The notes: a model not told the origin generated them from the letters alone. A DNA stretch of 64,000 nucleotides from Thermoleophilia bacterium (GCA_040776965.1 JAXGZO010000001.1:1062275-1126274); one strand, 5' to 3'. Positions 7,315 to 28,464 are shown, counted from the stretch's first letter. Numbers and translations: made by a program.

Positions 7315-9792
7315 CTACTTCACCACCAGGTTCACGAGCTTGCCGGGCACGTAGATCTCCTTGACGATCTGCTTGCCCTCGAGGAAGCGCGCGGTGTTCT
7401 CCGCCGCGCGCGCCAGCGCGAGCACGTCGTCCTTCTCCGCGTCCACCGGCATCTGCAGACGATCGCGCAGCTTGCCGTTGACCTGTACCACAACGGTGAC
7501 GACCTCATCCGCCGCGAGCTCCTCGTCCCAGCTGGGCCACGATGCGTCCAGCACCGTGCCACCGCCGCCGAGCAGCTCCCACGCCTCTTCGCCGAGGTGC
7601 GGGGCCATGGGCGCCAGCAGGAGCGTCATAGTGCAGAGCACCTCGCGCCACTGCGCGAGGCTGAGCGAGCCACGGGCGTTTACCCACACGTCCAGCGCCT
7701 CGTTCTGCAGCTCCATGAGCGCCGAGACGGCGGTGTTAAAGCGGAAGCCCTCCACATCGCCGGTGACCTTACGGATGGTCTTGTGGAGGATGCGCAGCAG
7801 ATGGCGGCCCCGCTCGGCCTCGGCCTCGTCGGCCGCCACCCCACTCCCCTGCGCCTCGGCCACCTCGCCGACGAGGTTCCAAAAGCGCGTGAGGAACCGC
7901 GAGCACCCCTGCACGCCGCGGTCGCTCCAGGCCACGCTCTGCTCAAAGGGCGCTATGAAGAGCTCGTACACCCGCAGGCTGTCGGCGCCGTAGCGCTCCA
8001 CCACGCTGTCGGGGGTCACCACGTTGCCCTTGCTCTTGCTCATCTTCTGGCCGTCCTCGGCCTGGATCATGCCCTGGTTGCGCAGGCGGGCGTAGGGCTC
8101 GCTGAAGCTCACGTAGCCGGCGTCGTGGGCGACCTTGCAGAAGAAGCGGGCGTAGAGCAGGTGCATCACCGCGTGCTCGGCGCCGCCGACGTACAAGTCG
8201 ACCGGCAGCCAATACTCGACCTTCTCGCGGTTAAACGCCGCGCCCTCTTCGCGCGGCGAGGCGTAGCGGAAGTGGTACCAACTGGAGCACGCGAACGTGT
8301 CCATGGTGTCGGTCTCGCGCCGGCCCGGCCCGCCGCAGCGGGGGCAGGCGGTGTGCAAAAAGGACTCGCTGCGGGCGAGCGGCGAGCGGCCGTCGTCGGT
8401 GGGGTGAAAGTCCTCCAAGTCGGGCAGCAGCACCGGCAGCTCCTCCACCGGCACCGGCACCGGGCCGCAGCTCTCGCAGTGCACGATAGGGATAGGCGCG
8501 CCCCAGTAGCGCTGGCGGCTGATCAGCCAATCGCGCAGCTTAAAGTTGATCTTCTTGCGGGCCACACCGCGCTCGGCGAGCCGGGCGACGATGGCCTCAA
8601 ACGCCTCGCCCGGCGCGGCCAGGCCGTTAAACTCGCCGGAGTTCACCATAAAGCCGTCGCCGGTGTACGCCTCGGTAAGCGTGCCCTGAGCGCCGCTGGG
8701 CGGCGCGATGACCTCGGTTATGGGCAGGCCGAAGGCCGTGGCGAACTGGAAGTCGCGCTCGTCGTGCGCCGGCACCGCCATAATAGCGCCGGTGCCGTAC
8801 CCCATGAGCACGTAGTCGCTGATCCAGATGGGGACGGGCGCCCCGTTAACGGGGTTAACGGCGTAAGCCCCCGTAAAGACGCCCGTCTTCTCCTTCTCGG
8901 TGCTCAGCCGCTCTATGTCGCTCTGGCGCCGCGCCTGGTCCTGGTACGCACCTACCGCCTCGCGCTGCTCGGGCACCGTGAGCTCGGGTACCAGCGGGTG
9001 CTCCGGCGCGAGCACCATGTAGCTGGCGCCGAAGAGCGTGTCGGGCCGCGTGGTAAACACAGTGAGCGTCTCGCCGCTCCCCTGCACGGTGAAGTCCACC
9101 TCGGCGCCCTCGCTGCGGCCGATCCAGTTGGTCTGCATGAGCTTGATCTGCTCGGGCCAGTCGATCGTGCTCAAATCGTCAAGTAGACGCTGCGCGTACT
9201 CGGTGATGCGCAGATACCACTGCTCGAGGCTCTTCTTGGTCACGTCGCTGCTGCACCGCCAGCACCGGCCCTGCTCCACCTGCTCGTTGGCGAGAATCGT
9301 CTTGCAGCTGGGGCACCACCACTGCTGCCCCGCGGAGCGGTACGCGAGGCCGCGCTCGTAGAGCAGCAAGAAGAACCATTGCGTCCACTTGTAGTAGTCG
9401 GGCGAGCAGCTCGTGACCTCGCGCGTCCAGTCAAAGGAGAGCGCGATAAGGTCCATCTGCCGCCGGTAGTTAGCGATGTTGCGCTCGGTGGTCACCTGCG
9501 GGTGCACGCCCATCTTGATGGCGTAGTTCTCGGCCGGCAGACCGAAGGCGTCCCACCCCATGGGGTGCAGCACGTTGTAGCCCTGCATGCGCTTGTAGCG
9601 AGAGACTACGTCGGTGGGCACGTAGTTGCGGCAGTGCCCCACGCTCAGCCCGTCGCCGGAGGGGTAAGGGAAGAAGTCGAGGCAGTAGAACTTGGGCTTG
9701 TCGCCCTCGTCCGGGGTGAGATAGGCGTCCCGCTCCCGCCAACGTCGCTGCCACTTTTGCTCTATGGCGTGCGGGTCGTAACGTCGATCCAT
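7315..9792 (-). CDS. leuS: Leucyl-tRNA synthetase
   Basis: ORF 7315..9882. It has the class I HIGH (PYPSGDGLSVGHCRNY) and KMSKS (KMSKSKGN) motifs. The start was set at MDRRYDPHAIEQKWQ (9792). Confidence 0.9.
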   Translation of the reverse strand: MDRRYDPHAIEQKWQRRWRERDAYLTPDEGDKPKFYCLDFFPYPSGDGLSVGHCRNYVPTDVVSRYKRMQGYNVLHPMGWDAFGLPAENYAIKMGVHPQVTTERNIANYRRQMDLIALSFDWTREVTSCSPDYYKWTQWFFLLLYERGLAYRSAGQQWWCPSCKTILANEQVEQGRCWRCSSDVTKKSLEQWYLRITEYAQRLLDDLSTIDWPEQIKLMQTNWIGRSEGAEVDFTVQGSGETLTVFTTRPDTLFGASYMVLAPEHPLVPELTVPEQREAVGAYQDQARRQSDIERLSTEKEKTGVFTGAYAVNPVNGAPVPIWISDYVLMGYGTGAIMAVPAHDERDFQFATAFGLPITEVIAPPSGAQGTLTEAYTGDGFMVNSGEFNGLAAPGEAFEAIVARLAERGVARKKINFKLRDWLISRQRYWGAPIPIVHCESCGPVPVPVEELPVLLPDLEDFHPTDDGRSPLARSESFLHTACPRCGGPGRRETDTMDTFACSSWYHFRYASPREEGAAFNREKVEYWLPVDLYVGGAEHAVMHLLYARFFCKVAHDAGYVSFSEPYARLRNQGMIQAEDGQKMSKSKGNVVTPDSVVERYGADSLRVYELFIAPFEQSVAWSDRGVQGCSRFLTRFWNLVGEVAEAQGSGVAADEAEAERGRHLLRILHKTIRKVTGDVEGFRFNTAVSALMELQNEALDVWVNARGSLSLAQWREVLCTMTLLLAPMAPHLGEEAWELLGGGGTVLDASWPSWDEELAADEVVTVVVQVNGKLRDRLQMPVDAEKDDVLALARAAENTARFLEGKQIVKEIYVPGKLVNLVVK

Positions 9793-9850
9793 GAGTCCCT
9801 CCGAGGGCGTTCGCCGTGACGAAGCTGCCGCGGCGGCGATTGTGTAACCG

Positions 9851-9880
9851 GCGTGCGCGTGCGTGTACGCGTGCGCGTAC
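9851..9880. repeat. Imperfect GTRCGY hexanucleotide tandem repeat (about 5 units of alternating purine-pyrimidine) upstream of leuS
   Basis: The sequence is gtgcgc gtgcgt gtacgc gtgcgc gtacac. It produces RVRVRV and TRTRTR artefact ORFs on both strands. Confidence 0.45.
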
Positions 9881-10039
9881 ACAGCAAAGCGCTTCGGCTG
9901 ATCTTACACGAGTGCAAAGGGCGGGGCTCGCTTCGCCCGCCCGCAGGCGGGGTCGGCTTCGCCGCCCGCCCCCCGGCTTGCGAGCCCAACCGCTCGGCGC
10001 TATACTCACGACCTGCCGGTTGCTCCGGCACCCCTCGGT

Positions 10040-10115
10040 GGGGGTATAGCTCAGTTGGGAGAGCGTTTGGCTGGCAGCCAAAAGGTCACCGGTTCGAGCC
10101 CGGTTACCTCCACCA
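10040..10115 (+). tRNA. tRNA-Ala (anticodon GGC)
   Basis: A 76-nt cloverleaf: acceptor GGGGGTA/TACCTCC with the diagnostic G3:U70 pair, D-arm GCTC-AGTTGGGA-GAGC, anticodon loop CTGGCAG, T-arm ACCGG-TTCGAGC-CCGGT, and an encoded CCA. Confidence 0.9.
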
Positions 10116-10163
10116 ATTTTCCTCTTTTCCTCAGCGGCAGCTGTTGCTGTGCGCGTCTGTTAC

Positions 10164-10193
10164 GGCCCCGCTTGGCGGGGCCGTTTTCGTCTC
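10164..10193 (+). terminator. Rho-independent terminator downstream of tRNA-Ala
   Basis: GGCCCCG-CTTG-GCGGGGCC followed by GTTTTCGTCTC. Confidence 0.5.
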
Positions 10194-10445
10194 TGGAGCC
10201 GCAGGGGCTCCAGGCGGAGCTTCGCCCTCTACGAGCGCTCCGCCCCGCTCCCCCACGCCAATAGCAGGGACTCTACATATTCTGTCACCCCTGAGGGGTA
10301 TGATGAGTAGCTGCACCCACTGAGGAGACGCCGACATATGAACAGAGCCCGCCACGCCGGGGTGACTCTCCACCCGAGGCATCTAAGAGCGACAGAGCGC
10401 AGCATGTGGCCGAAACGGCCCAGGGCGGCTAGTCGGCAGCTCTAG

Positions 10446-13346
10446 ATGACTATCACCGCCTACCAAGCGAAGTATTACGCCCATGAGCTTCAGCGCTCCT
10501 ACGCGAATGACCACGTCGGTAAGCTCGCAGGCCTCCTCTTTGATGCCCAAGTAGAGCCAAAACCGCATCAGATCGATGCGGCTCTCTTTGCGCTGAGAAC
10601 CTCCTACTCCCCAGGAGTAATCCTCGCCGACGAAGTAGGCCTCGGCAAGACCATTGAGGCGGGCATCGTCATCGCTCAGTTTTGGGCAGAGCGCAGGCGC
10701 CGCATTTTGATCATCTCTCCCTCAAGCCTCCGTCAACAATGGCAGCAAGAGTTGCACGAGAAATTCCTGATCCCCAGCAAGCTGCTCAACCCAAAACTCA
10801 AAACCAAACAACTTACGAACACCACTCAGCACGACAATGAAGTGCTGATTTGCTCTTATGAGTTCGCACTTCATCATGATGCCAGCCTGTTACGCCAGTG
10901 GGACTTAATTATTTGCGATGAGGCACACCGCCTTCGCAACCACTACACAGGGCGTAATAAAACACCAGAGGCAATAAGCCGAATCGTCCGTGAGGCACAT
11001 AAGACACTTCTGCTTACGGCTACCCCGCTGCAAAATCGCCTAGAAGAGCTCTACGGCCTCGTCAGCGTATTCGACCCCGACTACTTCTACTCCCTGAAGG
11101 CCTTTCGAGAGCGCTACGTCAAAGCCAAGAACCTTGGCGACAACGGCGATTTGGCCGAGCGCGTGGCCGCTATCAGCAAGCGAACACTGCGCAGAGACGC
11201 GGATAAGTACATCCAGTTCACGAAGCGCCTACCGCTTACTGTGGAGTTTATGCCAAGCCCCGAAGAGATCCGACTCTACGAGAAGGTCAATGACTACCTG
11301 CAACGCGAAAACCTCTTCGCGTTCGCCAGCTCGCAACGTCATCTAATGACGCTGATCATCCGTAAACGCCTCGGCTCATCCACCTACGCAGCCTCAAGCA
11401 CCCTGGAGAGAATCGCAGACCGACTCGAGGCGGAACTTCATACCGGCGTTCGGCGAGATAACCGTGGCGGCCTCACTGCAACCGACTTTATAGATGACGA
11501 GCTCACCGATGAGGAGCTAGAGGGGCTAGAGGAGGACAGTCTTTCCACCTCTGGGCGAGTCCAGCGTGAGCCCAACGCCGGTGAGCGTCTCAGCGGGACA
11601 ACCATTGAGGCCATGCACGCCGAAGTCGCAGAACTCCGCCACTACGCCGACTTAGCTCGCGCTATCACCGTCAATCAAAAGGCTGTAAAGCTCCATGAAG
11701 CCCTCGAGAAGGGCTTTGAGCGCCTGCGCGAGCTGGGTGCACCAGAAAAAGCGATCATCTTCACCGACTCTACAAAGACCCAGGAATACATCGCACGCTC
11801 GCTGAGCGAGTCTGGTCGCGGCGAGGGCCTGGTCTTGTTTAACGGGTCCAACACCTCTCCCCAGTCAGACAAGATCTACAAAAACTGGTTGGAGGCCAAC
11901 AAGGACGGCGACGTTATCACCAACATCCCAGCAGCAGATCGTCGCAAGGCACTTGTTGACTACTTCCGCGACCATGGCAACATCATGATCGCAACTGAAG
12001 CAGCCGCTGAAGGCATCAACCTGCAGTTCTGCTCGATGGTCGTGAACTACGATTTGCCGTGGAACCCGCAACGCGTTGAGCAGCGTATCGGGCGCACCCA
12101 CCGTTTCGGCCAGAAGTACGACGTGGTAGTCGTAAACTTCTCCAACAAAGGCAATGTGGCAGAGGCCCGCATCCTCGAGCTGCTGGCTAGCAAGTTTCAT
12201 TTGTTCGAATCCGTCTTCGATGCCAGCGACGAAGTACTCGGCGCCATCGAAGACGGGTTCGACTTCGAGAAGACCATTAATGACATCCTCAGCAACTCTC
12301 GTACCGACGCCGACATCGAACGCGCATTCAAGGAGCTTGAAGAGCAGTACGCTACTGAGATCAGCGCGGAGATGGCCGCCACTAAAGCCAAGGTATTTGA
12401 CGCCCTTGACCCAAACGTACAAGACCGCCTAAAAACCTATGACTCACAGTCCGGCGAGGTGCTCAACAAGTTCGAGCGCTTGCTCCTAGCTATCACCAAG
12501 TTCCAACTCGGTCCCTATGCAAGCTTTGAGGAGGATGGCCGTCGCTTCCTGCTGAACCAGGCACCGGTCAAAAACGTCAAGACGGGCCGCTACTACTTTA
12601 AGTCTGAGCCGCTTAAAAACGCTCACCAGTACCGCTTCGACAGCGACCTCGCCCGCTATGTCGTGGAGTCGTCTAAAGCGGCTACCACACCGAGCAGAGA
12701 GCTCACTTTCAGCCTCGGCAGCTCCGATCGCGTCGGCGCTACAGTGAGGGCGCTTGCGGGCAAATCGGGTGAGCTAACGGTCAAAATCGTCACCTTCTCA
12801 ATGAGAGCGAAAAGCGACGATCTGAGTGAGTCCTATGTGCTAGCCACCGGCCTGAGCGACGATGGTGAGCGGCTGGACCACGAACATATCGCCAACCTCC
12901 TCGACTTGGCCTGCATTACCGAGGGCCCAGAGGTAGTTATTGACGACTCCAAATTCGAGCAGTATCTGAGCGAGCGCTGCGACTACCTGCAAAAAGAAGT
13001 ACAAAGCCGCAACTCTCACTACTACGATCAACAAGAGGAGCTACTCTACCGCAACCAGGAAGACCGCCGAGCTGAATCCGAGGCCAAGATTCGCGAGTAT
13101 AAGGCAAAAGAAAAGGAAGCGCGAAGGGCCGCGAAGTGCGCCGACGACCCGATAGAGCAGCTAAAGTACAAGAAGGAAGCTCGTCGCTGGTCAGATCGTG
13201 CAGAAGAAGAAGACGAAGAAGCGCGGGCGGCCCGCAAGAAGATGCGCAAAGAAGCAGACCACTACCTCGAGCTGATCGAGCAAGCCCTCAAGGGGACGCA
13301 ACGGATCGAGCATTTGTTCACCATCCGCTGGAAGGTAGTCGCCTGA
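10446..13346 (+). CDS. SNF2/RAD54-family DEAD-like helicase (966 aa), first gene of a putative three-gene restriction-modification-like operon
   Basis: Walker A ADEVGLGKTIEAG, DEAH box IICDEAHRLRN, and a helicase-C block EGINLQFCSMVVNYDLPWNPQRVEQRIGRTHRFGQ. The C-terminus is a Lys/Glu/Arg-rich coiled-coil tail. It ends 19 nt before the methyltransferase gene. Confidence 0.85.
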   Translation: MTITAYQAKYYAHELQRSYANDHVGKLAGLLFDAQVEPKPHQIDAALFALRTSYSPGVILADEVGLGKTIEAGIVIAQFWAERRRRILIISPSSLRQQWQQELHEKFLIPSKLLNPKLKTKQLTNTTQHDNEVLICSYEFALHHDASLLRQWDLIICDEAHRLRNHYTGRNKTPEAISRIVREAHKTLLLTATPLQNRLEELYGLVSVFDPDYFYSLKAFRERYVKAKNLGDNGDLAERVAAISKRTLRRDADKYIQFTKRLPLTVEFMPSPEEIRLYEKVNDYLQRENLFAFASSQRHLMTLIIRKRLGSSTYAASSTLERIADRLEAELHTGVRRDNRGGLTATDFIDDELTDEELEGLEEDSLSTSGRVQREPNAGERLSGTTIEAMHAEVAELRHYADLARAITVNQKAVKLHEALEKGFERLRELGAPEKAIIFTDSTKTQEYIARSLSESGRGEGLVLFNGSNTSPQSDKIYKNWLEANKDGDVITNIPAADRRKALVDYFRDHGNIMIATEAAAEGINLQFCSMVVNYDLPWNPQRVEQRIGRTHRFGQKYDVVVVNFSNKGNVAEARILELLASKFHLFESVFDASDEVLGAIEDGFDFEKTINDILSNSRTDADIERAFKELEEQYATEISAEMAATKAKVFDALDPNVQDRLKTYDSQSGEVLNKFERLLLAITKFQLGPYASFEEDGRRFLLNQAPVKNVKTGRYYFKSEPLKNAHQYRFDSDLARYVVESSKAATTPSRELTFSLGSSDRVGATVRALAGKSGELTVKIVTFSMRAKSDDLSESYVLATGLSDDGERLDHEHIANLLDLACITEGPEVVIDDSKFEQYLSERCDYLQKEVQSRNSHYYDQQEELLYRNQEDRRAESEAKIREYKAKEKEARRAAKCADDPIEQLKYKKEARRWSDRAEEEDEEARAARKKMRKEADHYLELIEQALKGTQRIEHLFTIRWKVVA

Positions 13347-13365
13347 TTACGAGAGGAAGCATTCA

Positions 13366-15234
13366 ATGAGCGATGACGATTCCTTGCAAGATATCAACGA
13401 AACCCCGAGTAGCACACCGAACTTTAAAACCGAGCTGGCTGCACAACTCGCAGAGCTTATCCCCGAGGCCATTACCGATGGCAAAATCGACGTTGAAAAG
13501 CTTAAGGAACTCCTCGGCGACGATGCGGATGACGAGCGCGAACGCTTCGGTTTATTCTGGCCCGGCAAGAAGCGCGCCTTGCGCGCCGCACAGGAGCCGA
13601 CCACCGCAACGCTAAGGCCCGACTTCGAAAACTCGAAAGACTGGGATACCACCAAAAACGTCTTCATCGAGGGCGACAACCTCGAGGTACTCAAAATCTT
13701 GCAGAAGCACTATCACGGCAAGATTAAGATGATCTATATAGACCCTCCTTACAACACCGGCAGGGACTTCGTCTATGCCGATAATTACAGAGATGGGCTG
13801 AAGACTTATCTTGAGTGGACCCGCCAAGTAAACGAAGATGGTAGGAAAGTTAGCACCAATTCGGAATCGGAAGGTCGCTACCACTCAAACTGGTTAAATA
13901 TGATGTATCCGCGACTTAAGCTCGCGAGGAATTTGCTTACAGATGATGGTGTTATATTTATTTCTATTGATGATAATGAAATTGCAAATCTTCGTAGGAT
14001 TTGCGGTGAAGTATTTGGTGAATCGAACTTTATCGGACAGTTCGTTTGGGTGACAAAAAACGCAGCACGAGGTGTTCCTCCTCGGACGATGTTGATGTCG
14101 AATCATGAATATATAATCACATATGCACGAAACGCTGAGAAACTAAAATTCAAAGGCATAGAAAGAGATGCGGGCGATTTCTCCAATCCTGACAACGATC
14201 CACGAGGGCTATGGCGCTCAGAGAGCATGAAGGCCACTGGTGATCAGAATAATTACTTTACAATTAGTGATCCTTCTAGTAATCGAACTTTCCACGCGAA
14301 TTGGGCGTTTTCAGAGTCGAGAATTGAAAAGATGATCAATGATCGACTTATAATATTTCCAGAAGAAGAGAGCGGAACTCCCCGTCAGAAGAAATTTATT
14401 GATAGCTATTTAAACGAGAGGAAAGCCTTTGTAACAAATCTTGGATGGTATTCAACAGAAAATGAAACTAAATCTCTGATGTCGCTCTTTGGCAATAAAA
14501 AAGTATTTGACTTCCCGAAACCTCTAGCGCTGCTGACTTTTCTTCTTAATCAGTCGACATCAGATGGTATTATTCTTGACTTCTTCGCTGGATCCGGGTC
14601 GATAGCGCATGCAGTGCTTGAGCAAAACTCGAAGGACAATGGAAAGCGGCAATACATTTTAGTTCAGCTGCCGGAACCAGTAAGTAAAGAGTCAACTGCG
14701 TATAGGGAGGGTTTTCGTACAATTACTGCAATCAGCCGACAGCGAATTAATGCCGCGAGAGAGCGTATCAACAGCGTCAGGGGGGGTCAGCTCGAACTTG
14801 ATAGTTCTCAATTAGATACTGGTTTCCGCTCGTACCGGCTAACCGACACCAACTTCACCAAATGGCGCGCCACCAGCGAAACGGATGCATCCACACTGGA
14901 GCAGCACCTCCTAGGCCTGCGCGACAGCGCTGACGACACCGCAACCCCAGATGCCCTCCTGACCGAGATCCTCCTCAAGCAAGGCTACTCGCTCACCGAG
15001 CAGATAGGCGACACTGAGATCTCTGGCCTTAAACTCAAGACGGTAGGCGAAGGCTTGCTTCTCGCCTATCTCGACGAGCACACTAAGCCAACTCTCGAGC
15101 AGCTGCGCGCGATAGTCGCCGAGAAACCCGCCCGTCTCATCATCCTCGAGGACGCCCTCGACGGCGATGATGAGCTCAAGACGAATCTGGTTCAGGAGTG
15201 TAAGTCACGCGGCGTAGAGCTCTGGACGGCTTGA
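13366..15234 (+). CDS. N6-adenine DNA methyltransferase, Type III Mod-like (beta class)
   Basis: Motif IV IYIDPPYNTGRDFVY comes before motif I ILDFFAGSGSIAHA; this is beta-class order with a central TRD-like region. It is adjacent to, and translationally coupled with, the Res-like gene (TGAtATG). Confidence 0.85.
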   Translation: MSDDDSLQDINETPSSTPNFKTELAAQLAELIPEAITDGKIDVEKLKELLGDDADDERERFGLFWPGKKRALRAAQEPTTATLRPDFENSKDWDTTKNVFIEGDNLEVLKILQKHYHGKIKMIYIDPPYNTGRDFVYADNYRDGLKTYLEWTRQVNEDGRKVSTNSESEGRYHSNWLNMMYPRLKLARNLLTDDGVIFISIDDNEIANLRRICGEVFGESNFIGQFVWVTKNAARGVPPRTMLMSNHEYIITYARNAEKLKFKGIERDAGDFSNPDNDPRGLWRSESMKATGDQNNYFTISDPSSNRTFHANWAFSESRIEKMINDRLIIFPEEESGTPRQKKFIDSYLNERKAFVTNLGWYSTENETKSLMSLFGNKKVFDFPKPLALLTFLLNQSTSDGIILDFFAGSGSIAHAVLEQNSKDNGKRQYILVQLPEPVSKESTAYREGFRTITAISRQRINAARERINSVRGGQLELDSSQLDTGFRSYRLTDTNFTKWRATSETDASTLEQHLLGLRDSADDTATPDALLTEILLKQGYSLTEQIGDTEISGLKLKTVGEGLLLAYLDEHTKPTLEQLRAIVAEKPARLIILEDALDGDDELKTNLVQECKSRGVELWTA

Positions 15235-15235
15235 T

Positions 15236-18214
15236 ATGGAATTTAAGTTCGATGCTCACCAGCAGTACCAGCAGGACGCGATCGCGGCTGTAGTCGATCT
15301 CTTTGCGGGTCAGCTCGCCGATGCCGCCTCGCTGACGACCATGCTTCGCGGCGTCATACCCGACTCGGGCGATCAAATGAGCGCCTTCGAGATAGCCAGT
15401 GAGGTCGGCGCGGTCGGCAATAATTTACTCCTCGACGACGAGGCCATACTGCAGAATCTGCAAGCCGTGCAAGACCGCAACGGCCTCGAGGTGGTCGATG
15501 AGCTGGCTGGAGGAGCGCTGGACTTCGACATTGAGATGGAGACCGGCACCGGCAAGACGTACGTCTATCTGCGCACCATCTTCGAGCTGGCCAAGAGCTA
15601 CCGCTTCACCAAGTTCATTATCCTCGTGCCGAGCGTCGCCATCCGCGAGGGCGTGACCACGAGCATCAAGCTGATGACCGAGCACCTCAACGACCTCTAC
15701 GCCACGCCCTTCGACTCGTTCGTCTACAGCGGCAGCACACCAGAGGAGGTTCAGTCCTTCGCCACGTCCACGAGCGTCCAGATCATGGTGATGACTATCG
15801 GCTCATTGCGCGGAGACAATAATACTCGCGTTATTCACCAAACCCGTGACAAGCTCAACGGGCTACGCCCTATCGACTACCTGAAGGCCACGCAGCCCGT
15901 GGTCATTATGGACGAGCCGCAAAATATGGAGTCGCTGCTGAGCAAGTCCGCGGTAGGCGAGCTGAACCCCCTGTGCACACTGCGCTACTCAGCCACACAC
16001 CGCAAAACCCGCAATGTCGTGTACCGGCTCGACCCGGTCGACGCTCACGACCTGGGATTAGTTAAGCAGATCGTAGTGGCCGAAGCCCTGCAGCAAGGTA
16101 CCGATGCCGCACCGTACCTAAAGCTTCAATCCGTCCGTAGCGATAAGGGCTTTCTCGCCCGTATGGAGCTAGCTATGCGCTCTCAACGAGACGGCGTGAT
16201 TCAACGCAAGACGGTGAGCGTTAAAAAGGGTCAAGACCTCGCCGTCCTCACGGGCAACTCCGCCTACAATGGCTGGTGGCTCAACGAGCTGAGCATCGAT
16301 CCTGAATCGGTCGAGCTCTTCCCCTACGGATGGCTTCAGGTCGGCGAGACTATCGGCGGCTCTAGCGATTCCATCTACCGCGAGATGATCCGCGAGACCA
16401 TTCGCGAGCACCTTCGCAAGGAGGCAATGCTCCGAGCGCACGGCGTTAAAGTGCTCAGTCTATTTTTCGTCGATAAAGTCGCACGTTTCCTCGGCGAGGG
16501 CTACAACAACGACACCGCTAACGGCGACTTCGTAACATGGTTCGACGAGCTCTTCGAAGAGGAGCGAGCCAGAGACCAGCGATGGGTAGCCTCCCTGCCG
16601 CTCGATCCGATCGAGTACCGCCGCGCCTACTTCTCGGCAATCAAAGGTACAAAAGGGCGACGCGACACCTTTAAAGACACCAACGGCACCTCTAAAGTCG
16701 ATGATGGCGCCTACGACCTCATCATGCGCGACAAAGCGCGGCTACTGGATGAGAGCGAGCCGGTGCGATTTATCTTCAGCCACTCGGCGCTCCGCGAGGG
16801 CTGGGACAACCCCAACGTCTTTCAAATCTGTGCCCTGCGGGAGATGGGCGAGCCCACAGAACGCCGTCAGACTATCGGGCGCGGGTTACGCCTACCGGTT
16901 AACCAGTCCGGCGAGCGAGTGCCCAACAAGAGCATCGCTCAACTCACCGTCGTGGCCAATGAGTCCTACCGCGAGTTCGCGAGCAGCCTGCAGAGGGAGT
17001 ACCGCGATTCCGGCGTCAGCATCGGCGTAGTGCGTCCCGGTGAGTTCGCCAAGGTCCCCACCACCGATGATGCCACCGGCGAGGAGCGGCGCCTGGGCTT
17101 CCAGGGCTCTCAGTTGATATGGGGTGAGCTGGTTGAGCGTGGCTTTCTCGACAAAGAGGGCAACCTCACCGCCAGCTTTCGCCCCGAGACCCTCGGCTTC
17201 ACACTCGGCCCAGCGCCGAACTTCTTTTGGCCGCAAAACGAGATCATCCACGTTATGCGGAACTCTCGTATCGAACGCATGGTCAAGACTCAGCGCGAGC
17301 GCGTAACCCGCAAGCTGAACAAAGAGGTCTACACATCGCCGTGGTTCGAGGACTTCTGGCGCACGATCTCACGGAGGACCACCTATCGCGTCGCCCTTAA
17401 GCGCGACGAGATCATTCATAACGCTGTCGCCAAAATTAAGGCCGAACAGCCTATCCCGCCCCTACGAGTCCAGGTCACTCGCGCGGGCGTCAAACTAATG
17501 CGTGGCGGTACCAAAACCTCTGAGACAGTCACCCGCTCGGCCGAATTGTCGGGCACCTACCAGCTGCCCGACATCATTAGCGAGCTGCAAGAAGCCACCT
17601 CACTCACCCGCAAAACGCTGGTGGATGTATTGACTCGCTCGGGCAAGCTTGATGAGTTCATCGGTAACCCCAATGACTTCATCGCGATGGTTAAACGCAA
17701 CCTACAAAACGTGGTGGCCACTGCTGTTCAGGAGGGCATCCAGTACGAGAGAATCGACGGCTACATCTATGAACTGCGCGAGCTACAGGCTGATGGAGCT
17801 GAGGCGCGAGACCTCTTCCTCGACCGCGTCTATAAGGTCGAGCACACCGACAAGACGGACTTCGACTATATCCAAATCGACTCGGAGGGGGCGAACGCAC
17901 CGGAGCGTCAGTTCGCTGAGAAGCTCGACTCGCGTGAGGACGTAAAGTTCTTCATGAAGCTGCCCGACAAGTTCAAGATCGAGACACCCGTGGGCCCCTA
18001 CAACCCCGACTGGGCGATTATCAAGCAGGATGAGAGCGGCGAGGATCGCATCTACCTGATCCGCGAGACCAAGAGCACGCTGGACGAGTCCCAACGCCGC
18101 CCAAGCGAGAACGCCAAGATCAAAGCCGCAGAGGAGCACTTCAAACAGCTAGGCATCGGCACCGAAGCTATCCCTGGCTACGCTGTTAGTGTGCCCGGCA
18201 ATTGGAGATTGTGA
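15236..18214 (+). CDS. Type III restriction endonuclease Res-like subunit (N-terminal SF2 helicase, C-terminal PD-(D/E)xK nuclease)
   Basis: 992 aa. Walker A METGTGKTYV, motif II VIMDEPQN, and a C-terminal nuclease motif PYNPDWAII...IYLIRETK. The start overlaps the mod stop. Confidence 0.8.
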   Translation: MEFKFDAHQQYQQDAIAAVVDLFAGQLADAASLTTMLRGVIPDSGDQMSAFEIASEVGAVGNNLLLDDEAILQNLQAVQDRNGLEVVDELAGGALDFDIEMETGTGKTYVYLRTIFELAKSYRFTKFIILVPSVAIREGVTTSIKLMTEHLNDLYATPFDSFVYSGSTPEEVQSFATSTSVQIMVMTIGSLRGDNNTRVIHQTRDKLNGLRPIDYLKATQPVVIMDEPQNMESLLSKSAVGELNPLCTLRYSATHRKTRNVVYRLDPVDAHDLGLVKQIVVAEALQQGTDAAPYLKLQSVRSDKGFLARMELAMRSQRDGVIQRKTVSVKKGQDLAVLTGNSAYNGWWLNELSIDPESVELFPYGWLQVGETIGGSSDSIYREMIRETIREHLRKEAMLRAHGVKVLSLFFVDKVARFLGEGYNNDTANGDFVTWFDELFEEERARDQRWVASLPLDPIEYRRAYFSAIKGTKGRRDTFKDTNGTSKVDDGAYDLIMRDKARLLDESEPVRFIFSHSALREGWDNPNVFQICALREMGEPTERRQTIGRGLRLPVNQSGERVPNKSIAQLTVVANESYREFASSLQREYRDSGVSIGVVRPGEFAKVPTTDDATGEERRLGFQGSQLIWGELVERGFLDKEGNLTASFRPETLGFTLGPAPNFFWPQNEIIHVMRNSRIERMVKTQRERVTRKLNKEVYTSPWFEDFWRTISRRTTYRVALKRDEIIHNAVAKIKAEQPIPPLRVQVTRAGVKLMRGGTKTSETVTRSAELSGTYQLPDIISELQEATSLTRKTLVDVLTRSGKLDEFIGNPNDFIAMVKRNLQNVVATAVQEGIQYERIDGYIYELRELQADGAEARDLFLDRVYKVEHTDKTDFDYIQIDSEGANAPERQFAEKLDSREDVKFFMKLPDKFKIETPVGPYNPDWAIIKQDESGEDRIYLIRETKSTLDESQRRPSENAKIKAAEEHFKQLGIGTEAIPGYAVSVPGNWRL

Positions 18215-18396
18215 TTGTTTACGGGATGAATAGTAGCAGCGAGTAAGATCTCCTTGAGAGCTCATGCTGAAATACAGAGCTGGATAAGCACTGACGGAAA
18301 TTTCAGATGAGTTAAAACTAGCGATCTGATTAATCAATTCTTTGTAATCTAATTTGAAAAGATTGATATCCAGCAGGAGTATACTTTCAAAACACT

Positions 18397-20697
18397 ATGC
18401 TACAAAATGACTGGCAGATCCATCATCTTGAAAAAATTGTAAACATAGCGAGCAATCGCTATGACAGCGCGCTGAACGTTGATCTAAGTTATAAAACAGT
18501 TTTTTCAGCATTAGGCAGAACAAGTGAGTTTCAAAAAAAACTCCTAGCGATGAGTAATCGGCTTAGAACTGTACTTGATGAAGTGTCGAAATATAATAAG
18601 TCTACTGAAATTGAACGCCTCATTAACGCCTCAAAATCTGTTGCACTCGGAATACGACGGGTGTCGGATAGCGCTGCTGATACCACTCTAGATTACTCAC
18701 AAATTATCAATGATGCCAGATCTGGAATCAATTTAGCTGAGATGATCAGAAAGTCACGAAACGATCAATGTTGTAAAAAGAAATCAATATATCCATTAGA
18801 TTTTTCGCTCGATAATGTGAAGCAGGTAGCAGATTTACTCGCCGAAGCTCTGAATCTATGTGATGGGAAAGAAGCTAAAGCAGCAAACGAACAGATGCTG
18901 CTTCTGACGGGGTCGGCTGGAGCAGGTAAAACTCACATGCTGGTAGATCTAGCACTCAAACGCAATGTTGAAAAACTCACTTCAATCGTTCTCTTTGGGG
19001 ATCAATTCAGCGCACTAAAAGATATATGGCAATTTACAACAAAACTGGGCACCAAAAATAGATACTCTCTCATTGAAGTTCTTGATAAGCTGGAAACAAT
19101 TGGGAGATCATCAAAAGCACGAACAATGCTTCTTATTGATGGGATAAATGAAACTTCACCATGCAGGATCTGGCAAAATGGACTTGAGTCGCTAAAGGCA
19201 AAACTACTCGATCGACCAAACGTTTGTGTAGTTATTTCTATACGAAATGGATTTCAAGATTTAGTAGCGACCCAGAGAACCATCAATGAAACCATGACGG
19301 TTGAACATTATGGGTTTGGCAAAGATATATGGAAAGCTGTTCAGCTATTTTTTGGACACTACCGAGTACAATGGCCAGAAATTCCACTTCTTGGGCCAGA
19401 GTTCTCAAATCCACTGTTTTTAAAACTATTCTCAGAGGCATTTTCAGGTAAAACACCAAGAAGCTTCCGTGGGCACGAGGGTGGGACCCACATATTTGAG
19501 GCCTATGTAAAGAAGGCCGATCAAAAGATCAATAAGGATCTTGGGATCTCTGGAAGAGCTCATATCAACTGCTGGAATGATCTCATTAAACCCATTGCAG
19601 TCTGGATGGGAGAGAATAAAGTCCAAGAAATTCCAGCCGATAAGGCAGTTGATATCGCAGAAACAGCCTACCCCGGTTTGGGAGATCAAGCACTCACCTT
19701 AATGGAGCGTCATGCCCTCATCACGAAGTCTGCTCGAGTAGATAAGTTGAGTGGAAATCATGACTATTTCTATCGCTTTTCGTACCAGAAATTCAGTGAT
19801 CATTTAATAGTCCGCTTCCTACTCAACAGCCACCTTGACTCCAAATCTTCAGTGTCCGAAAAGAAATTCCTTTCAGAGATTTCGCTGGAACAAATCGTAA
19901 GACCAGATGAGAGGCTAGGACTACTAGAGGCGCTTTCTGCGCAAATACCAGAACGCAAAAATGGGATTTGCGAACTGATTGACTATATCTCAGAAGATAT
20001 GGTGCGATACGAAAAGGTAATCGACGCATTTCTCGATAGCTTAGTCTGGCGAAAGCCAGAGGCGATCGGTAAGAGTGCAATTAACTACATAAATAATGTT
20101 GTTCTCAAAAATGAACGATGCACACATAATTTCTACGAGGTTCTTCTCTCCGTCGCAAGTATACCGAATTATAAACTCAATGCACGAACATTGCACAAAT
20201 TACTGGAGGAATCATCACTTACCGATAGAGATCAGATATGGACGATGTGGCTTAATCATAACTATAGAGATGAAGGAAATGCTGTTGACCGCCTTGTTTC
20301 CTGGGCTCGAAGAGCACCAGGTCGCGATAAGGTAAATCCAGAAAGTGCGCTATTAACCGCGATAGCGATATCTTGGTTTTTCACTTCATCAAATCGTTTT
20401 CTAAGAGACGATGCGACAAAAGCTGTCATCGCACTGCTTGAGCATCATCCTGGCGTAGTGGCTGATCTAATTCGTATGTTTGAGACGGTAAACGACCCAT
20501 ATGTGCTTGAGCGCGTACTGTGCTCCGCTTATGGAGCCTTAGCTCGAAATCCCCAGGTTGATGCTCTTAAAGATGCTTCTATTACTTTACTGGATGGGTT
20601 TTTCAAAAGAAACGACTGCACTCATCTTCTGAGTCGCGACTACGCGCGTGGAATCGTCGAGCTGGCGATGAAAACTGGAGTTCTTAATGGAGGATGA
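18397..20697 (+). CDS. P-loop NTPase, STAND-like (766 aa). Upstream part of a 1311-codon frame interrupted by a TGA at 20695-20697
   Basis: Walker A LLLTGSAGAGKTHMLVDL at about residue 165 and Walker B-like TMLLIDGINETS. A long alpha-helical C-terminal region follows. The AT-rich composition is unlike the host. Confidence 0.6.
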   Translation: MLQNDWQIHHLEKIVNIASNRYDSALNVDLSYKTVFSALGRTSEFQKKLLAMSNRLRTVLDEVSKYNKSTEIERLINASKSVALGIRRVSDSAADTTLDYSQIINDARSGINLAEMIRKSRNDQCCKKKSIYPLDFSLDNVKQVADLLAEALNLCDGKEAKAANEQMLLLTGSAGAGKTHMLVDLALKRNVEKLTSIVLFGDQFSALKDIWQFTTKLGTKNRYSLIEVLDKLETIGRSSKARTMLLIDGINETSPCRIWQNGLESLKAKLLDRPNVCVVISIRNGFQDLVATQRTINETMTVEHYGFGKDIWKAVQLFFGHYRVQWPEIPLLGPEFSNPLFLKLFSEAFSGKTPRSFRGHEGGTHIFEAYVKKADQKINKDLGISGRAHINCWNDLIKPIAVWMGENKVQEIPADKAVDIAETAYPGLGDQALTLMERHALITKSARVDKLSGNHDYFYRFSYQKFSDHLIVRFLLNSHLDSKSSVSEKKFLSEISLEQIVRPDERLGLLEALSAQIPERKNGICELIDYISEDMVRYEKVIDAFLDSLVWRKPEAIGKSAINYINNVVLKNERCTHNFYEVLLSVASIPNYKLNARTLHKLLEESSLTDRDQIWTMWLNHNYRDEGNAVDRLVSWARRAPGRDKVNPESALLTAIAISWFFTSSNRFLRDDATKAVIALLEHHPGVVADLIRMFETVNDPYVLERVLCSAYGALARNPQVDALKDASITLLDGFFKRNDCTHLLSRDYARGIVELAMKTGVLNGG

Positions 20698-20823
20698 GCG
20701 GAATCAGCGAAACCTCCGTACGGTTCCCCTTTTCCGAAAAATGTACCCAGCAAAGATGAGATTAAAAAAAAATACGCAGATAATAAAGATCCCGTAAGCA
20801 ACTACAAATCGATATGGTATTCG

Positions 20824-22332
20824 GTGATGCATGGAGACTTCGGTAGATACATCATCGGGACAAATTCCGAAAGTATTCCATGGAGCAATCGTCCTCTTGG
20901 AGACTATATCTCTCCAGCGCCGGAGGAACGATGGGAAGATTTTTTGCTAACACTATCGATAGAGGCACGGCAAGCACTCAAAGCGTGGGAAGAATCGAAA
21001 ATCACAGACGTGATGAAGTTTAACAGCAGTAAACTACAGAGTGACAACACAGGCGAGCCGAATGAAATCACGCCTCAAGAGCAATACATGGAAGTCCTAC
21101 TACTTAGGCTACTCACGGAGGAGCAACGATCTACGCTTAAGTCTACTAACACCTTAACACAGGATTGCGCTGATAGCTCCTTTGATCTAAGAATTGCACA
21201 GTCGTGGATCTTTTTACGATGCATCCAACTAGGATTGACTAAGGATCGATTTTGGAAGAGCGATAGAGATCATTATTCTACGTTGAGTTATAACGATAAA
21301 TGTAAAATAGAACGCATAGGCAAAAAGTACCAGTGGATAGCGTATTATGAGTTCCTGGGCTTACTCGCCGATAACTATGCCCTGAAGCCGCCTTGGAACT
21401 CAAGTAAATCACCTGAGTACCTTGGTCCATGGCTGGACCTGCTTCGCGACATCGATCCAACGTGTTTGACTGATGGGCTCTCCGATGAGGAGCTTCCCCC
21501 CATCTGCAGCCAGCCCAGATACGATCCAGATGCATTCTCTTTTGATCATGAGAAGTGGCTCCTCACACTTGAGGATCTAATAGATCCCCGCCAGCTAATT
21601 GAGCGCTCCGATGAGAATGGCGAGTCCTGGTTAACCCTCGCTGGATTCTTTGAATGGGAATCTTTATCTGCACCAGGAATAAGCCGTTCCTCAGTCCTAC
21701 ATCGCTATGTCTGCTGCCAACTGCAGGGCTACCTAATACCGATCGAAGAAGCATCTATCTTTATTAGTCTAGCAAGATCACAAAACTTCAAGGAACTATG
21801 GATTCACAGGAATTATTCATCACTTGATGTCTATCTACGAGAATACCCGGATTCCATAGCATTTACCGACATGCTTAAGTCATCAGAAAACGATTCTTCT
21901 TCTCTCAGCGAAGACATGAAAATACCAATACTTGCTGCCACTAATAGCTATTCATCAATCTTAACTGATAGAGATTGCTCGGTTAAGAATCCGTTTACGA
22001 TTACACTTCCTTCATATAAGCTAGTTAAAGAAATGAATATGGTGCAAGGAATCAAAGACGGTAGCTGGACAATTAACGGACAGACCGTTGCATTTGATCC
22101 ATCAGTCGATTCGAAGTCACATAGCATGCTTCTTATTCGTCGATCAAATCTAGAATTTTATCTACAAAAAGCAGGCCTTGCGCTTGTCTGGACTGTAATT
22201 GCCTCTAAGGCGCTTAACGGCAGATGGAATGAGCTCAACGACAGACCAGCAAGAACCGAAGTGAATGCTGTATATAAGATGCAAACCAGGGGTATTACTG
22301 GCCGCATGTGGAAAAGAGAAGCGTCAAGCTAG
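20824..22332 (+). CDS. Hypothetical protein (502 aa); downstream continuation of the interrupted NTPase frame
   Basis: An ORF in low-GC DNA. I recognise no motifs. It is in frame with the upstream NTPase ORF, and its stop coincides with the low-GC/high-GC boundary. Confidence 0.45.
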   Translation: MMHGDFGRYIIGTNSESIPWSNRPLGDYISPAPEERWEDFLLTLSIEARQALKAWEESKITDVMKFNSSKLQSDNTGEPNEITPQEQYMEVLLLRLLTEEQRSTLKSTNTLTQDCADSSFDLRIAQSWIFLRCIQLGLTKDRFWKSDRDHYSTLSYNDKCKIERIGKKYQWIAYYEFLGLLADNYALKPPWNSSKSPEYLGPWLDLLRDIDPTCLTDGLSDEELPPICSQPRYDPDAFSFDHEKWLLTLEDLIDPRQLIERSDENGESWLTLAGFFEWESLSAPGISRSSVLHRYVCCQLQGYLIPIEEASIFISLARSQNFKELWIHRNYSSLDVYLREYPDSIAFTDMLKSSENDSSSLSEDMKIPILAATNSYSSILTDRDCSVKNPFTITLPSYKLVKEMNMVQGIKDGSWTINGQTVAFDPSVDSKSHSMLLIRRSNLEFYLQKAGLALVWTVIASKALNGRWNELNDRPARTEVNAVYKMQTRGITGRMWKREASS

Positions 22333-22334
22333 AA

Positions 22335-23245
22335 CGCAACGCATATCAGAAGGCGCCAGCACTATCCGCGCGTCGTTTGAGCCCTACTACCGCACCACGA
22401 TCCTCAGCGAGGAGACCGACCCCAACAAACTCCACGACCTCAAGGCTGACCTCGACGGCTACCAGATCTACGCCACCGAGGATGTACAAACACTGACGGA
22501 GCGCTACCTCTCCGGCGCCGACCGCGACGAGCTCGACCCTATTCTAGACACCTGCGTCGCCCTCTACACCGAGGAGTTCGACGAGGACGACCAGGTCGAC
22601 TTCAAGAGCAAGGCGAAGGCCTTTATCCGCACCTACGACTTCCTCGCCTCCATCCTCCCCTACGCGAACGTCGAGTGGGAGAAGCTCTCGATCTTCCTCA
22701 ACTTCCTCGTACCCAAACTACCCGCACCGGTGGAGCAGGACCTCGCCAGGGGCATCCTGGAGTCTATCGACATGGAGAGCTACCGCGTAGAGAAGCGGGC
22801 CGCCATCGCCATCGAGCTAGCCGACGAAGACGCGGAGATAGGCCCGGTGCCGGCCCAGGCGGGCGGCCGCCGGGCGGAGCCGGAGCTAGACATCCTCTCC
22901 ACCATTATCGAGGAGTTCAACGACCAGTTCGGCGACATCCCCTGGACCGACGAGGACCGCATACAGCGCCTCATAACGGAGGAGATCCCGCAGAAGGTCG
23001 CCGCCGACCCAGCCTACCGCAACGCGCAGCGCAACAACGACGCGCAAAACGCGCGTATCGAGCACAACAGGGCGCTCGAAAGCGCGATGAGTGAGCTCGT
23101 CAGCGTAAACCTCGAGCTCCTCAAGCACTTCAGCGACAACCCGGGCTTTAAGCGCTGGCTCTCCGACACCACTTTTAACATGACGTATGGAGGACCGCAG
23201 GGCGAGGGGCGTAAAGCGAGACATCTCGCGATCAACCCTGAGTAA
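22335..23245 (+). pseudogene. hsdR: 3' fragment of a Type I restriction enzyme R subunit gene (HsdR C-terminal domain), with the 5' part missing
   Basis: A high-GC frame reading ...IRASFEPYYRTTILSEETDPNKLHDL...KAFIRTYDFLASILPYANVEWEKLSIFLNFLV... resembles the conserved C-terminal (DUF3387-type) region of HsdR. There is no upstream nuclease or helicase part and no proper start. It abuts the AT-rich cassette. Confidence 0.5.
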
Positions 23246-23274
23246 GGAGCCCTTCAATAGACCTCCTCCCCACA

Positions 23275-23829
23275 ATGAAAGCCCGCCACTCGGTGCGCAG
23301 CTTTACGAAGGAGCGCATCGACGACGAGACCAAGGCGGCGCTCCTGCAGGAGATCGCCGTCAAGAACTGCCGTAACTACCTCGCCATCGCCGGCGTGAGC
23401 GGAGCGGATGAGGCCGTGGGGTACTACGGCGAGAGGGTTGTGCTCGCAGCGCAGGCCCTCGGCCTCAACTCGTGCTGGGTGGCGGTCACCTACAGCAAGG
23501 GCAGGGTCCCGTGCAGGCTGGAGGAGGGCGAAAAGCTGCACATCGTGGTCGCCCTCGGCTACGGCACAACGCAGGGCTCCCCCCACAAGAGTAAACGCCT
23601 TGAGGCCGTCTGCGAGGTGGACGACGCCACGCCCGACTGGTTTAAGGCCGGCGTGGAGGCCGCGCTCCTCGCCCCCACGGCGATGAACCAACAGAGGTTC
23701 CACTTCTCGCTCGCGGGCGAAGAGGTGCGCGCAACAGCGGGCGTCGGCTTGTACACAGCCATAGACCTCGGCATCGCGAAGTACCACTTTGAGGCTATCG
23801 CGGGCGCAGACAACGTTAGGTGGGCGTAG
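23275..23829 (+). CDS. Nitroreductase-family protein
   Basis: 184 aa reading MKARHSVRSFTKERIDDETKAALLQEIAV...; the typical nitroreductase N-terminal RxSxRxF motif. Confidence 0.75.
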   Translation: MKARHSVRSFTKERIDDETKAALLQEIAVKNCRNYLAIAGVSGADEAVGYYGERVVLAAQALGLNSCWVAVTYSKGRVPCRLEEGEKLHIVVALGYGTTQGSPHKSKRLEAVCEVDDATPDWFKAGVEAALLAPTAMNQQRFHFSLAGEEVRATAGVGLYTAIDLGIAKYHFEAIAGADNVRWA

Positions 23830-23929
23830 CCCGTACTGCGCGCCTCCCCGCAGAGCCCCGCCCTGCCGCCGCTCCGGCGAGGGTCGGCACGTCTTAATTG
23901 AGCGCCGAGATGAAGCTCCCGCGCAACCC

Positions 23930-24316
23930 CTAGGGAGCGAGCGGAGGCGGCGTAGTCGCCGCAGCACCAGCGGGAGCCACAAGCGGCGAGGAGGAGGCCG
24001 GCGACATGGGCTCAGAGAGCGGCTGGGCGGAGGAGGGGGCAGGGGATAACGCCGAAGGACCACTCGGGACCACGAGTGGCGCCGGGGAGGCGGAGGGTGG
24101 AGCACTCGAGGCGAAAGGCGACACAGGCGAAGCCGAAGCGGTGGGGCGCTCGGCGGAAAAGGGATCCCGCTGAGCGAGCTCGCTAAAGAGTGTGTACCCG
24201 GCGAGAAAACAGAGGGCGACGGCCGCCGCGAAGGCGATGAGCTTAGCGACCGCCTTAAGCACGGCACGGCCTCGCCCGCCGCGCCGGAAAAGCCGAGGGA
24301 GCCCGCTGCGCTCCAT
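23930..24316 (-). CDS. Small membrane-anchored Pro/Ser/Ala-rich protein (hypothetical)
   Basis: 128 aa: a basic N-terminus, one TM helix (LIAFAAAVALCFLAGYTLF), then a PSA-rich low-complexity tail. It is convergent with the nitroreductase. Confidence 0.35.
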   Translation of the reverse strand: MERSGLPRLFRRGGRGRAVLKAVAKLIAFAAAVALCFLAGYTLFSELAQRDPFSAERPTASASPVSPFASSAPPSASPAPLVVPSGPSALSPAPSSAQPLSEPMSPASSSPLVAPAGAAATTPPPLAP

Positions 24317-24500
24317 GAGATTCTTCAGCGTAGATCGCTTCAGGTGCGCCCCTTAGTCGCATCGTTTGCACTCCGCATGCTACCAAACTGGAGAAGCATT
24401 CACCGCTGGGTTAAACTATGCAACTTACACCGTACAACCCTCATCGCCCGGCGCCCGTATGCCGGGCGGCGGGCGTAAACCCGAAACCAGGAGGTACAGC

Positions 24501-25274: not shown

Positions 25275-25382
25275 CGCCGGGGGGGGGCGCCGTGGTTTAG
25301 CCACGCGCCCCGGGGGGAACGAGCGACTCATGTATTACGGCGTGCCGACCGAGGCACACCGACGACCGAAGAGGGCAGATTT

Positions 25383-26710: not shown

Positions 26711-26714
26711 CGGG

Positions 26715-28343: not shown

Positions 28344-28464
28344 GAAGTAACGACAGCCCTTTCGATAACGACAGTACCCGACGGCGAGCGCCGGCAAGGG
28401 AGTTTACGCTACTCACGCGCAGTAGCGCAAGTGCAACTCCCTTGCACGCGCCCTTAGCCGAATC

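Follow-up and report, generated by a model that had tools for sequence, protein, structure and literature searches.

The DNA examined here is a 64,000-nucleotide stretch of the genome of a Thermoleophilia bacterium (GCA_040776965.1, JAXGZO010000001.1:1062275-1126274). The whole stretch is referred to as the window, and positions are counted from its first letter. A first-pass annotation of the sequence alone had proposed that a segment of about 13 kb with low guanine-plus-cytosine (GC) content, 10116-23274, is an acquired and probably degraded island at the 3' end of a tRNA-Ala gene. We found that the window carries about 12 kb of foreign DNA, approximately 10131-22332, which was horizontally acquired and lies in a slot downstream of the native tRNA-Ala(GGC) gene. 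This DNA is probably a decayed member of a family of tRNA-Ala(GGC)-associated elements that later received two imports of lower GC content and sits beside the remains of a former type I system. Its acquired and degraded nature is supported by the same locus in host relatives, by homologues that carry a recombinase, and by a series of decay states among these homologues. The limits proposed for the island did not stand, as low GC content ends at 22332 and the slot defined by gene content would reach ~25290.

Composition and extent of the foreign segment

The island holds genes for a DrmD-like SNF2 helicase, a type III methyltransferase (Mod) with its helicase-endonuclease (Res), and an Avs2-like STAND NTPase, followed by a remnant of the type I restriction gene hsdR (Table 1). 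The gene identities of the first-pass annotation (SNF2-Mod-Res, a STAND NTPase, and an hsdR remnant) are all confirmed, and its statement that all cargo is defence-related held up. GC content steps down directly past tRNA-Ala(GGC), from about 0.68-0.70 to 0.56-0.59, and falls to 0.43 in two nested blocks. Specifically, the 50 one-kb intervals outside the island have a mean GC content of 0.682 (standard deviation 0.031, minimum 0.623), and the 13 one-kb intervals across 10001-23000 range from 0.417 to 0.589, with z scores of -3.0 to -8.5 against the outside. By segment, the GC content is 0.559 for 10116-13780, 0.427 for 13781-14860 (the centre of mod), 0.588 for 14861-18214, 0.427 for 18215-22332, 0.616 for 22333-23274, and 0.662 for 23275-25290, the two flanks being at 0.695 and 0.679. 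The shortfall is largest at synonymous third codon positions. GC at third codon positions (GC3) is 0.84-0.91 in core genes (0.76 in the short STAS gene), compared with 0.68 in the SNF2 gene, 0.75 in res, 0.67-0.75 at the two ends of mod, 0.34-0.40 in the mod centre, and 0.37-0.44 in avs2. The low-GC block is real, and so are both nested blocks. The drop right after the tRNA gene and the AT-richer blocks within mod and at 18.2-22.33 kb had been read correctly from the sequence, and the composition profile sets the island apart from its background. The return to core-level GC had been placed at 23275. The hsdR remnant has a core-like GC3 of 0.845, hence the compositional island stops at 22332, about 0.9 kb short of 23274.

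We then inspected the same locus in host relatives. The best LeuS matches are Thermoleophilia metagenome-assembled genomes, and even for the closest relatives available in the collections, LeuS identity to the window is no higher than 82-85%. Four to five relatives in this range have none of the island genes, and their tRNA-Ala(GGC) is identical or nearly identical to that of the window (76 of 76 positions in L001, L085, and L087). In L001, L085, L086, and L087, the tRNA-Ala(GGC) gene lies between leuS and a gene for a 119-amino-acid (aa) STAS protein, which is followed by secF and secD; none of the four has the island genes at this place, and the reading as an acquired island stands. The sequence directly after the tRNA differs among them: a spermidine-synthase-like gene in L001 and L085, an HGSNAT-family gene in L087, and the STAS gene itself in L086. 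Homology between the window and its relatives is lost 15-20 nt past the tRNA and returns at ~25290, some 90 nt before the STAS gene. Judged by gene content, the variable slot would therefore span about 10131-25290 and include the nitroreductase and dapB-like genes. For genome annotation, this means that the region from 10.1 to 25.3 kb should be treated as accessory, not core.

The nitroreductase and dapB-like genes have a core-like composition, yet both are absent from the locus in all four to five relatives. The empty site predicted earlier, in which leuS and tRNA-Ala are directly followed by these two genes, was accordingly not seen. The two genes may have been translocated to this place or acquired, or they may have been lost elsewhere. 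The Pfam match of the nitroreductase begins at profile position 63; truncation by the insertion was considered and rejected, since residue 4 of the gene product aligns to residue 22 of 1vkw. Relatives also have two genes that are missing from the window; they lie between secF and the 119-aa STAS gene and encode a STAS protein of 148-152 aa and a hypothetical protein of 127-129 aa. In some relatives, leuS and the tRNA are separated by one or two metallophosphoesterase genes, which the window does not have either. These absences, near 25383-25742 and on the leuS side, indicate that the lineage is variable on either side of the tRNA.

Related elements at tRNA genes and the origin of the island

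The three closest relatives of the island, L098, L099, and L100, are 76-79% identical to the window at the nucleotide level over 10443-13980 and 14821-18215. The SNF2 part is 76-78% identical from the exact start codon, and the res part 77.5-79%. The mod centre (13980-14821) is the only gap in this homology, which stops at 18215, the first base after the res stop codon. Between the window and L098, where 3.5 and 3.4 kb align at the nucleotide level, the SNF2 and Res proteins share 83% and 86% amino-acid identity, and the host LeuS proteins only 53%. Module identity so far above that of LeuS is a clear signature of horizontal transfer. The GC3 of the related elements is 0.70-0.74 in SNF2 and 0.73-0.80 in res, that of the host of the island 0.85-0.91. 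As the corresponding window values match those of the related elements, there is no detectable drift toward host composition.

The relatives share more than the module. In the window and in L098, L099, L100, L102, L104, L156, L158, L130, and L155, a plus-strand tRNA-Ala(GGC) gene flanks the module on its SNF2 side, L130 and L155 being more distant relatives. After duplicates were merged (L098 equals L160 and L101, L102 is nearly identical to L158, and L104 equals L156), the closest SNF2 clade, at an identity of at least 81%, contains five distinct recombinase-bearing elements, L098, L100, L102, L103, and L104. Four of the five are located at tRNA-Ala(GGC), and the fifth, L103, at tRNA-Gly(GCC). 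Between tRNA and SNF2, each element has genes for a large serine recombinase, a Replic_Relax protein, and a 719-aa DUF87/TrwB-like (FtsK/TraB-like) ATPase, together with an MT-A70 methylase gene and small open reading frames.

Two observations concern the tRNA boundary of these elements. The recombinase reading frame of every intact element ends about 60 nt inside the tRNA on the opposite strand (for example, 1434-3332 in L098 and 120-2087 in L100), so that its last ~20 codons are encoded by the tRNA antisense sequence. Metagenome contigs that carry the SNF2 module (L102, L103, L104, L130, L142, and L155) often start exactly at the flanking tRNA, which fits a break of the assembly at element boundaries that are polymorphic in the population.

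Two relatives have lost the mobility genes. L099 still has the tRNA, some 190 nt from the 3' end of the recombinase gene (90% identical to L104), and the sequence preceding SNF2; the roughly 8 kb in the middle are lost. L130 has 514 bp between tRNA and SNF2, which match both ends of the 3.4-kb interval in L155; the central 2.9 kb are gone, and in L155 they hold a recombinase-like gene. L099 and L130 together indicate that the mobility module was lost at least twice independently, leaving tRNA-Ala, a short spacer, and SNF2-Mod-Res. The window, with 330 bp between tRNA and SNF2, has the same end state in a more eroded form. An island without an integrase can hence be tied to a concrete family of mobile elements, which explains why it has neither integrase nor att repeats.

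From this comparison, we infer the following course. A serine-recombinase element carrying SNF2-Mod-Res would have been delivered beside tRNA-Ala(GGC) by recombinase-mediated integration. It would then have lost a mobility module of about 8.5 kb, as L099 and L130 did, along with its right-hand part consisting of a variable ATPase gene and the DUF2130 and KTSC genes. The mod centre may have been exchanged for a lower-GC allele through recombination in its conserved flanks, and the slot after the res stop codon may have taken in an avs2-like STAND gene together with its leader. The avs2 block would thereby have come to abut the last 30% of an older, native-like hsdR gene left from a destroyed type I system. 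A single TGA codon would later have inactivated avs2. The order of these events is inferred as well.

Several observations weigh against an origin from such an element. The mobility trio, the left end, and the right-hand genes of L098-type elements are all missing from the window; tblastn found neither DUF2130 nor KTSC genes in it. No integrase, recombinase, or transposase gene was found in the window with Pfam, PADLOC, or tblastn using the mobility proteins of related elements, in agreement with the first-pass annotation, and no remnant of a recombinase, relaxase, or ATPase was found there either. The window shows no recognisable right end of the original element. No true same-species empty site was seen, the relatives being only 82-85% identical in LeuS, and the slot varies for non-defence genes as well. 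For the spacer that separates tRNA and SNF2, nhmmer and blastn searches gave no match among the left ends of related elements. Its first 15-20 nt align with the pyrimidine-rich trailer of host relatives, and homology is gone beyond. A host-like stretch past the tRNA is difficult to explain by a crossover directly 3' of CCA; either attB would have to lie further downstream, or the resemblance of the pyrimidine tract would have to be coincidental. Finally, direct repeats of the tRNA 3' end, a search for which had been suggested at the far boundary, were not found anywhere in the window (12-30 nt, mismatches allowed, both strands), and a general repeat search gave chance-level matches only. This last absence is uninformative, because the intact related elements have no such repeat at their far side either, as expected for serine recombinases.

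Aside from the trailer, the spacer contains a strong terminator-like hairpin (10162-10184) with a T-rich tail, and its remainder is orphan sequence. Promoter-like sites are not more frequent than in shuffled sequence. The window has no small HTH gene upstream of SNF2, unlike proteobacterial plasmids. A candidate recombinase remnant at the tRNA was rejected: the C terminus of the L098 recombinase matched 10254-10054 in tblastn (E = 9e-5), but most of this match is the tRNA read on the opposite strand, and outside the tRNA it amounts to 31% identity over 35 low-complexity residues.

The lack of att repeats, of a recombinase remnant, and of left-end homology, together with the host-like trailer, would also suit a different origin, in which the slot from tRNA-Ala to STAS/secDF is a defence hotspot and not the target of a tRNA-specific element. 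Pieces that arrived by transformation, transduction, or conjugative transfer would have filled it by homologous or illegitimate recombination, and the adjacency to the tRNA would reflect the hotspot. The slot does differ in all relatives, non-defence genes included, the leuS side of the tRNA varies too, and the junctions at 18215 and 22332 lie at gene boundaries and have no repeat or mobile-element signature. We nevertheless consider this origin unlikely, because in unrelated hosts the closest homologues of the module are carried by recombinase-bearing elements located at the same tRNA species, and because the two independent deletion derivatives L099 and L130 share the layout of tRNA, short spacer, and SNF2. 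With a few dozen tRNA genes per bacterial genome, landing at the same one by chance is improbable. Derivation from the tRNA-Ala(GGC)-associated element family hence remains the probable explanation.

Abrupt GC steps at or beside gene boundaries, in an organism known mainly from metagenome-derived data, could in principle reflect an assembly or binning chimera of low-GC pieces from other organisms. Such a chimera is highly improbable, as independent Logan contigs are identical to the window across all junctions through secD. Two independent Logan assemblies from other runs match 9675-16822 and 16795-28837 with no mismatch; together they span the leuS/tRNA/SNF2 region, both mosaic boundaries of mod, and the res/avs2, avs2/hsdR, and hsdR/nitroreductase junctions. 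Thus, neither the junctions nor the avs2 stop codon are an artefact of one assembly. The two Logan contigs overlap by only 28 nt inside res (16795-16822), which suggests a break in the assembly graph, possibly due to strain variation or a repeat. Least credible of all is an ancestral, vertically inherited region with low GC from selection or amino-acid content: SNF2-Mod-Res is intact and apparently under selection, but none of the relatives examined has the region, synonymous third positions show the largest GC deficit, and the module proteins are 83-86% identical to those of hosts with only 53% identity in LeuS. In effect, both the chimera and vertical inheritance are ruled out.

Defence genes of the island

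Table 1. Features in and around the slot downstream of tRNA-Ala(GGC), with positions in the window
Feature	Position	Strand	Evidence and remarks
Native tRNA-Ala(GGC) gene, bounding the island on the left	10040-10115	+	ARAGORN; sole tRNA in the window
tRNA-SNF2 spacer, 330 bp, GC 0.64	10116-10445	+	Alignment with relatives, terminator scan
DrmD-like SNF2 helicase, 966 aa, intact	10446-13346	+	Pfam SNF2-rel_dom, Helicase_C; PADLOC DrmD 4.6e-174
Type III Mod methyltransferase, 622 aa, intact, mosaic	13366-15234	+	PADLOC MTase_III 1.8e-188
Low-GC central cassette of mod	13781-14860	+	GC 0.43, GC3 about 0.1-0.55
Type III Res helicase-endonuclease, 992 aa, intact	15236-18214	+	PADLOC REase_III 1.1e-258, full length; Pfam ResIII, RE_endonuc
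AT-rich non-coding leader of the avs2 block, 182 bp	18215-18396	+	GC 0.363; stop codons in the avs2 frame
Avs2-like STAND NTPase gene, 1311 codons, one in-frame TGA	18397-22332	+	PADLOC, NCBIfam
HsdR C-terminal ~30% (remnant)	22334-23245	+	tblastn
TM1586-type nitroreductase	23275-23829	+	Pfam; essentially full length versus 1vkw
dapB-like reductase, divergent	24459-25274	+	Pfam; TIGR00036 95.6 bits, below the cut-off of 122

The core module, 10446-18214, is an intact three-gene operon of SNF2, mod, and res, with gaps of 19 nt between SNF2 and mod and 1 nt between mod and res; its type III part may still be active. The SNF2 protein aligns with the NCBIfam DrmD models over the whole length at 576 and 240 bits, below the respective cut-offs of 950 and 610. 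It has hundreds of homologues at 73-84% identity, among them proteins of identical length, and those with names are almost all from Actinomycetota (Coriobacteriia, Nanopelagicales, Aeromicrobium, Gordonia, Rhodococcus, and Acidimicrobiia). Mod aligns to the solved Mod subunits of PDB 6k0w and 4zcf (EcoP15I Mod) and has its DPPY motif at residues 126-129 and its FAGSG motif at residues 406-410. In Res, the RE_endonuc domain is at the C-terminal end.

A codon alignment of the window mod with five related mod genes reveals conserved flanks and a divergent centre, with identities of 60-98% and 5-38%, respectively. Residues 1-200 and 500-622 are conserved, and residues ~205-400 are hypervariable in all members aligned, as would be expected of the target-recognition region. 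The centre is AT-rich in the window copy only, the GC3 of its relatives there being 0.64-0.83. On the N-terminal side, low GC3 takes in about 60 codons of the conserved part, and in the other direction it extends to about residue 480. This pattern fits a swap in which the specificity region was replaced from a lower-GC mod allele by crossovers in the conserved flanks; such a replacement implies a changed recognition specificity. The AT-rich block placed at ~13.7-14.7 kb in the first-pass annotation is therefore real, and its limits are revised to ~13.78-14.86 kb, covering the target-recognition region and part of the conserved flanks.

The block that follows res measures 4.1 kb at 43% GC and consists of the leader and the avs2-like gene, at whose stop codon it ends and adjoins the hsdR stub. 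The translated gene matches the PADLOC Avs2 profile at positions 171-938 and 987-1496 of 1504 (1.8e-183 and 3.1e-92) and the NCBIfam Avs2 model at positions 5-763 and 772-1317 of 1317. Its closest homologues, of 1318-1323 aa, align end to end at 46-57% identity and come from genomes of ~60% GC, compared with 43% in the block. The unmatched PADLOC positions 1-170 raised the possibility of an N-terminal truncation, which was rejected, as the alignment with the homologues begins at their residue 1 and that with the NCBIfam model at position 5; the start codon is aligned with residue 1 of the 1318-aa homologues. The only lesion is a TGA codon at 20695-20697, which is present in the independent assembly too. 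It lies in a poorly conserved linker, at a position where the nearest homologue has Arg.

Neither the Avs2-like protein of the window nor its closest homologues have an N-terminal effector domain. Two homologues (L092 6422-11957 and L096 6382-11957) overlap the stop codon of an upstream DUF2357/PDDEXK_7 nuclease gene. These nuclease-avs2 pairs are translationally coupled and belong to a larger operon with an MmeI/Eco57I-type methyltransferase gene. A third homologue stands alone beside an integrase gene and an IS110 transposase gene, and no remnant of the nuclease was found upstream of the window avs2. The clade may represent Avs2 proteins with an effector supplied in trans.

The hsdR remnant is 67% identical in tblastn to the C-terminal ~283 residues of HsdR, a type I subunit of 1006 aa, from a Meiothermus plasmid, and it has no match in Pfam, NCBIfam, PADLOC, or PDB. 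Only the last ~283-300 hsdR codons are present, with neither hsdM nor hsdS. The native-like GC3 suggests that the stub is the older resident of the slot. One tRNA-adjacent slot hence records successive gain, exchange, and decay of defence genes, its layers being a type I stub, an intact type III system with SNF2 whose vehicle is gone, a putatively swapped mod specificity, and a freshly inactivated STAND sensor.

The linkage of SNF2 to the type III genes extends well beyond the window. A metagenome contig scan gave 72 further SNF2 loci; among those with enough sequence, mod is downstream of SNF2 in 50 of 53 and res in 43 of 44. The same triad occurs on a Cupriavidus taiwanensis plasmid with 38-42% protein identity in all three genes, and looser variants occur on other plasmids. 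In the relatives L098-L151, a swap slot lies directly after the res stop codon, and the gene in it often starts at that codon. Its occupants are PDC-S06/AAA_13 ATPases, an OLD-family nuclease, Ppl-like and UvrD/GajB-like proteins, and SLFN-type helicases, often followed by the DUF2130 and KTSC genes.

These regularities raise the tentative idea, which we hold to be possible rather than probable, that SNF2, Mod, and Res form a distinct, uncharacterised three-component restriction system with SNF2 as an obligatory partner. Such a system would include the swappable fourth-gene slot after res, and would have spread in Actinomycetota on serine-recombinase elements that target tRNA-Ala(GGC). The SNF2 motor might, for example, remodel or load Mod2Res on DNA, or sense invaders as in DISARM. 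No description of a SNF2 plus type III Mod-Res system was found in the literature searched, which is not proof that none exists. The strictly conserved triad of a DrmD-like SNF2 and the type III genes is a more interesting by-product than the island itself, and as a conserved module it is worth testing.

Comparison with known systems

The mod and res genes share with EcoP15I-like type III restriction-modification systems (Mod2Res1) the DPPY and FAGSG motifs and the central target-recognition region of Mod, the SF2 helicase and C-terminal endonuclease of Res, and adjacent genes separated by 1 nt. The hypervariable and exchangeable centre of mod is as in known mod alleles. Different from classical type III systems, the module has a DrmD-like SNF2 gene strictly linked upstream. 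A DrmD-homologous SNF2 protein, aligned over its whole length and encoded beside a DNA methyltransferase, is also found in Class 1 DISARM (DrmD, DrmMI, DrmA, DrmB, and DrmC). The window triad is not DISARM, because PADLOC found no DrmA, DrmB, or DrmC in the island; it has a type III Res instead. The STAND ATPase and C-terminal sensor encoded by the avs2-like gene match the profiles of Avs2 (AVAST type 2) end to end. The gene differs from Avs2 in having no part for an N-terminal effector domain and in a reading frame broken by TGA, and it lacks the nuclease partner that two of its closest homologues have.

The five recombinase-bearing relatives L098, L100, L102, L103, and L104 resemble actinomycete integrative and conjugative or mobilisable elements (AICEs; PMC3218068) in combining a serine recombinase, Replic_Relax, an FtsK/TraB-like ATPase, and location at a tRNA 3' end. 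Integration by a serine recombinase at tRNA genes has been called rare among AICEs (Ghinet et al., 2011, PMC3218068). The Rep protein of L098-type elements is Replic_Relax and not RepSA, RepAM, or Prim-Pol, and their conjugative function is putative. The window shares the cargo and the tRNA of these elements, and differs in lacking integration, replication, and transfer modules as well as recognisable ends. Compared with tRNA-adjacent defence islands, from which nothing essential differs, the window has the same atypical composition, tRNA flank, clustered defence genes with turnover, and pseudogenised remnants. The likely vehicle was a serine-recombinase element, so that no att direct repeats accompany the island. 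The island is a well-documented but fairly ordinary case of defence-gene gain and loss.

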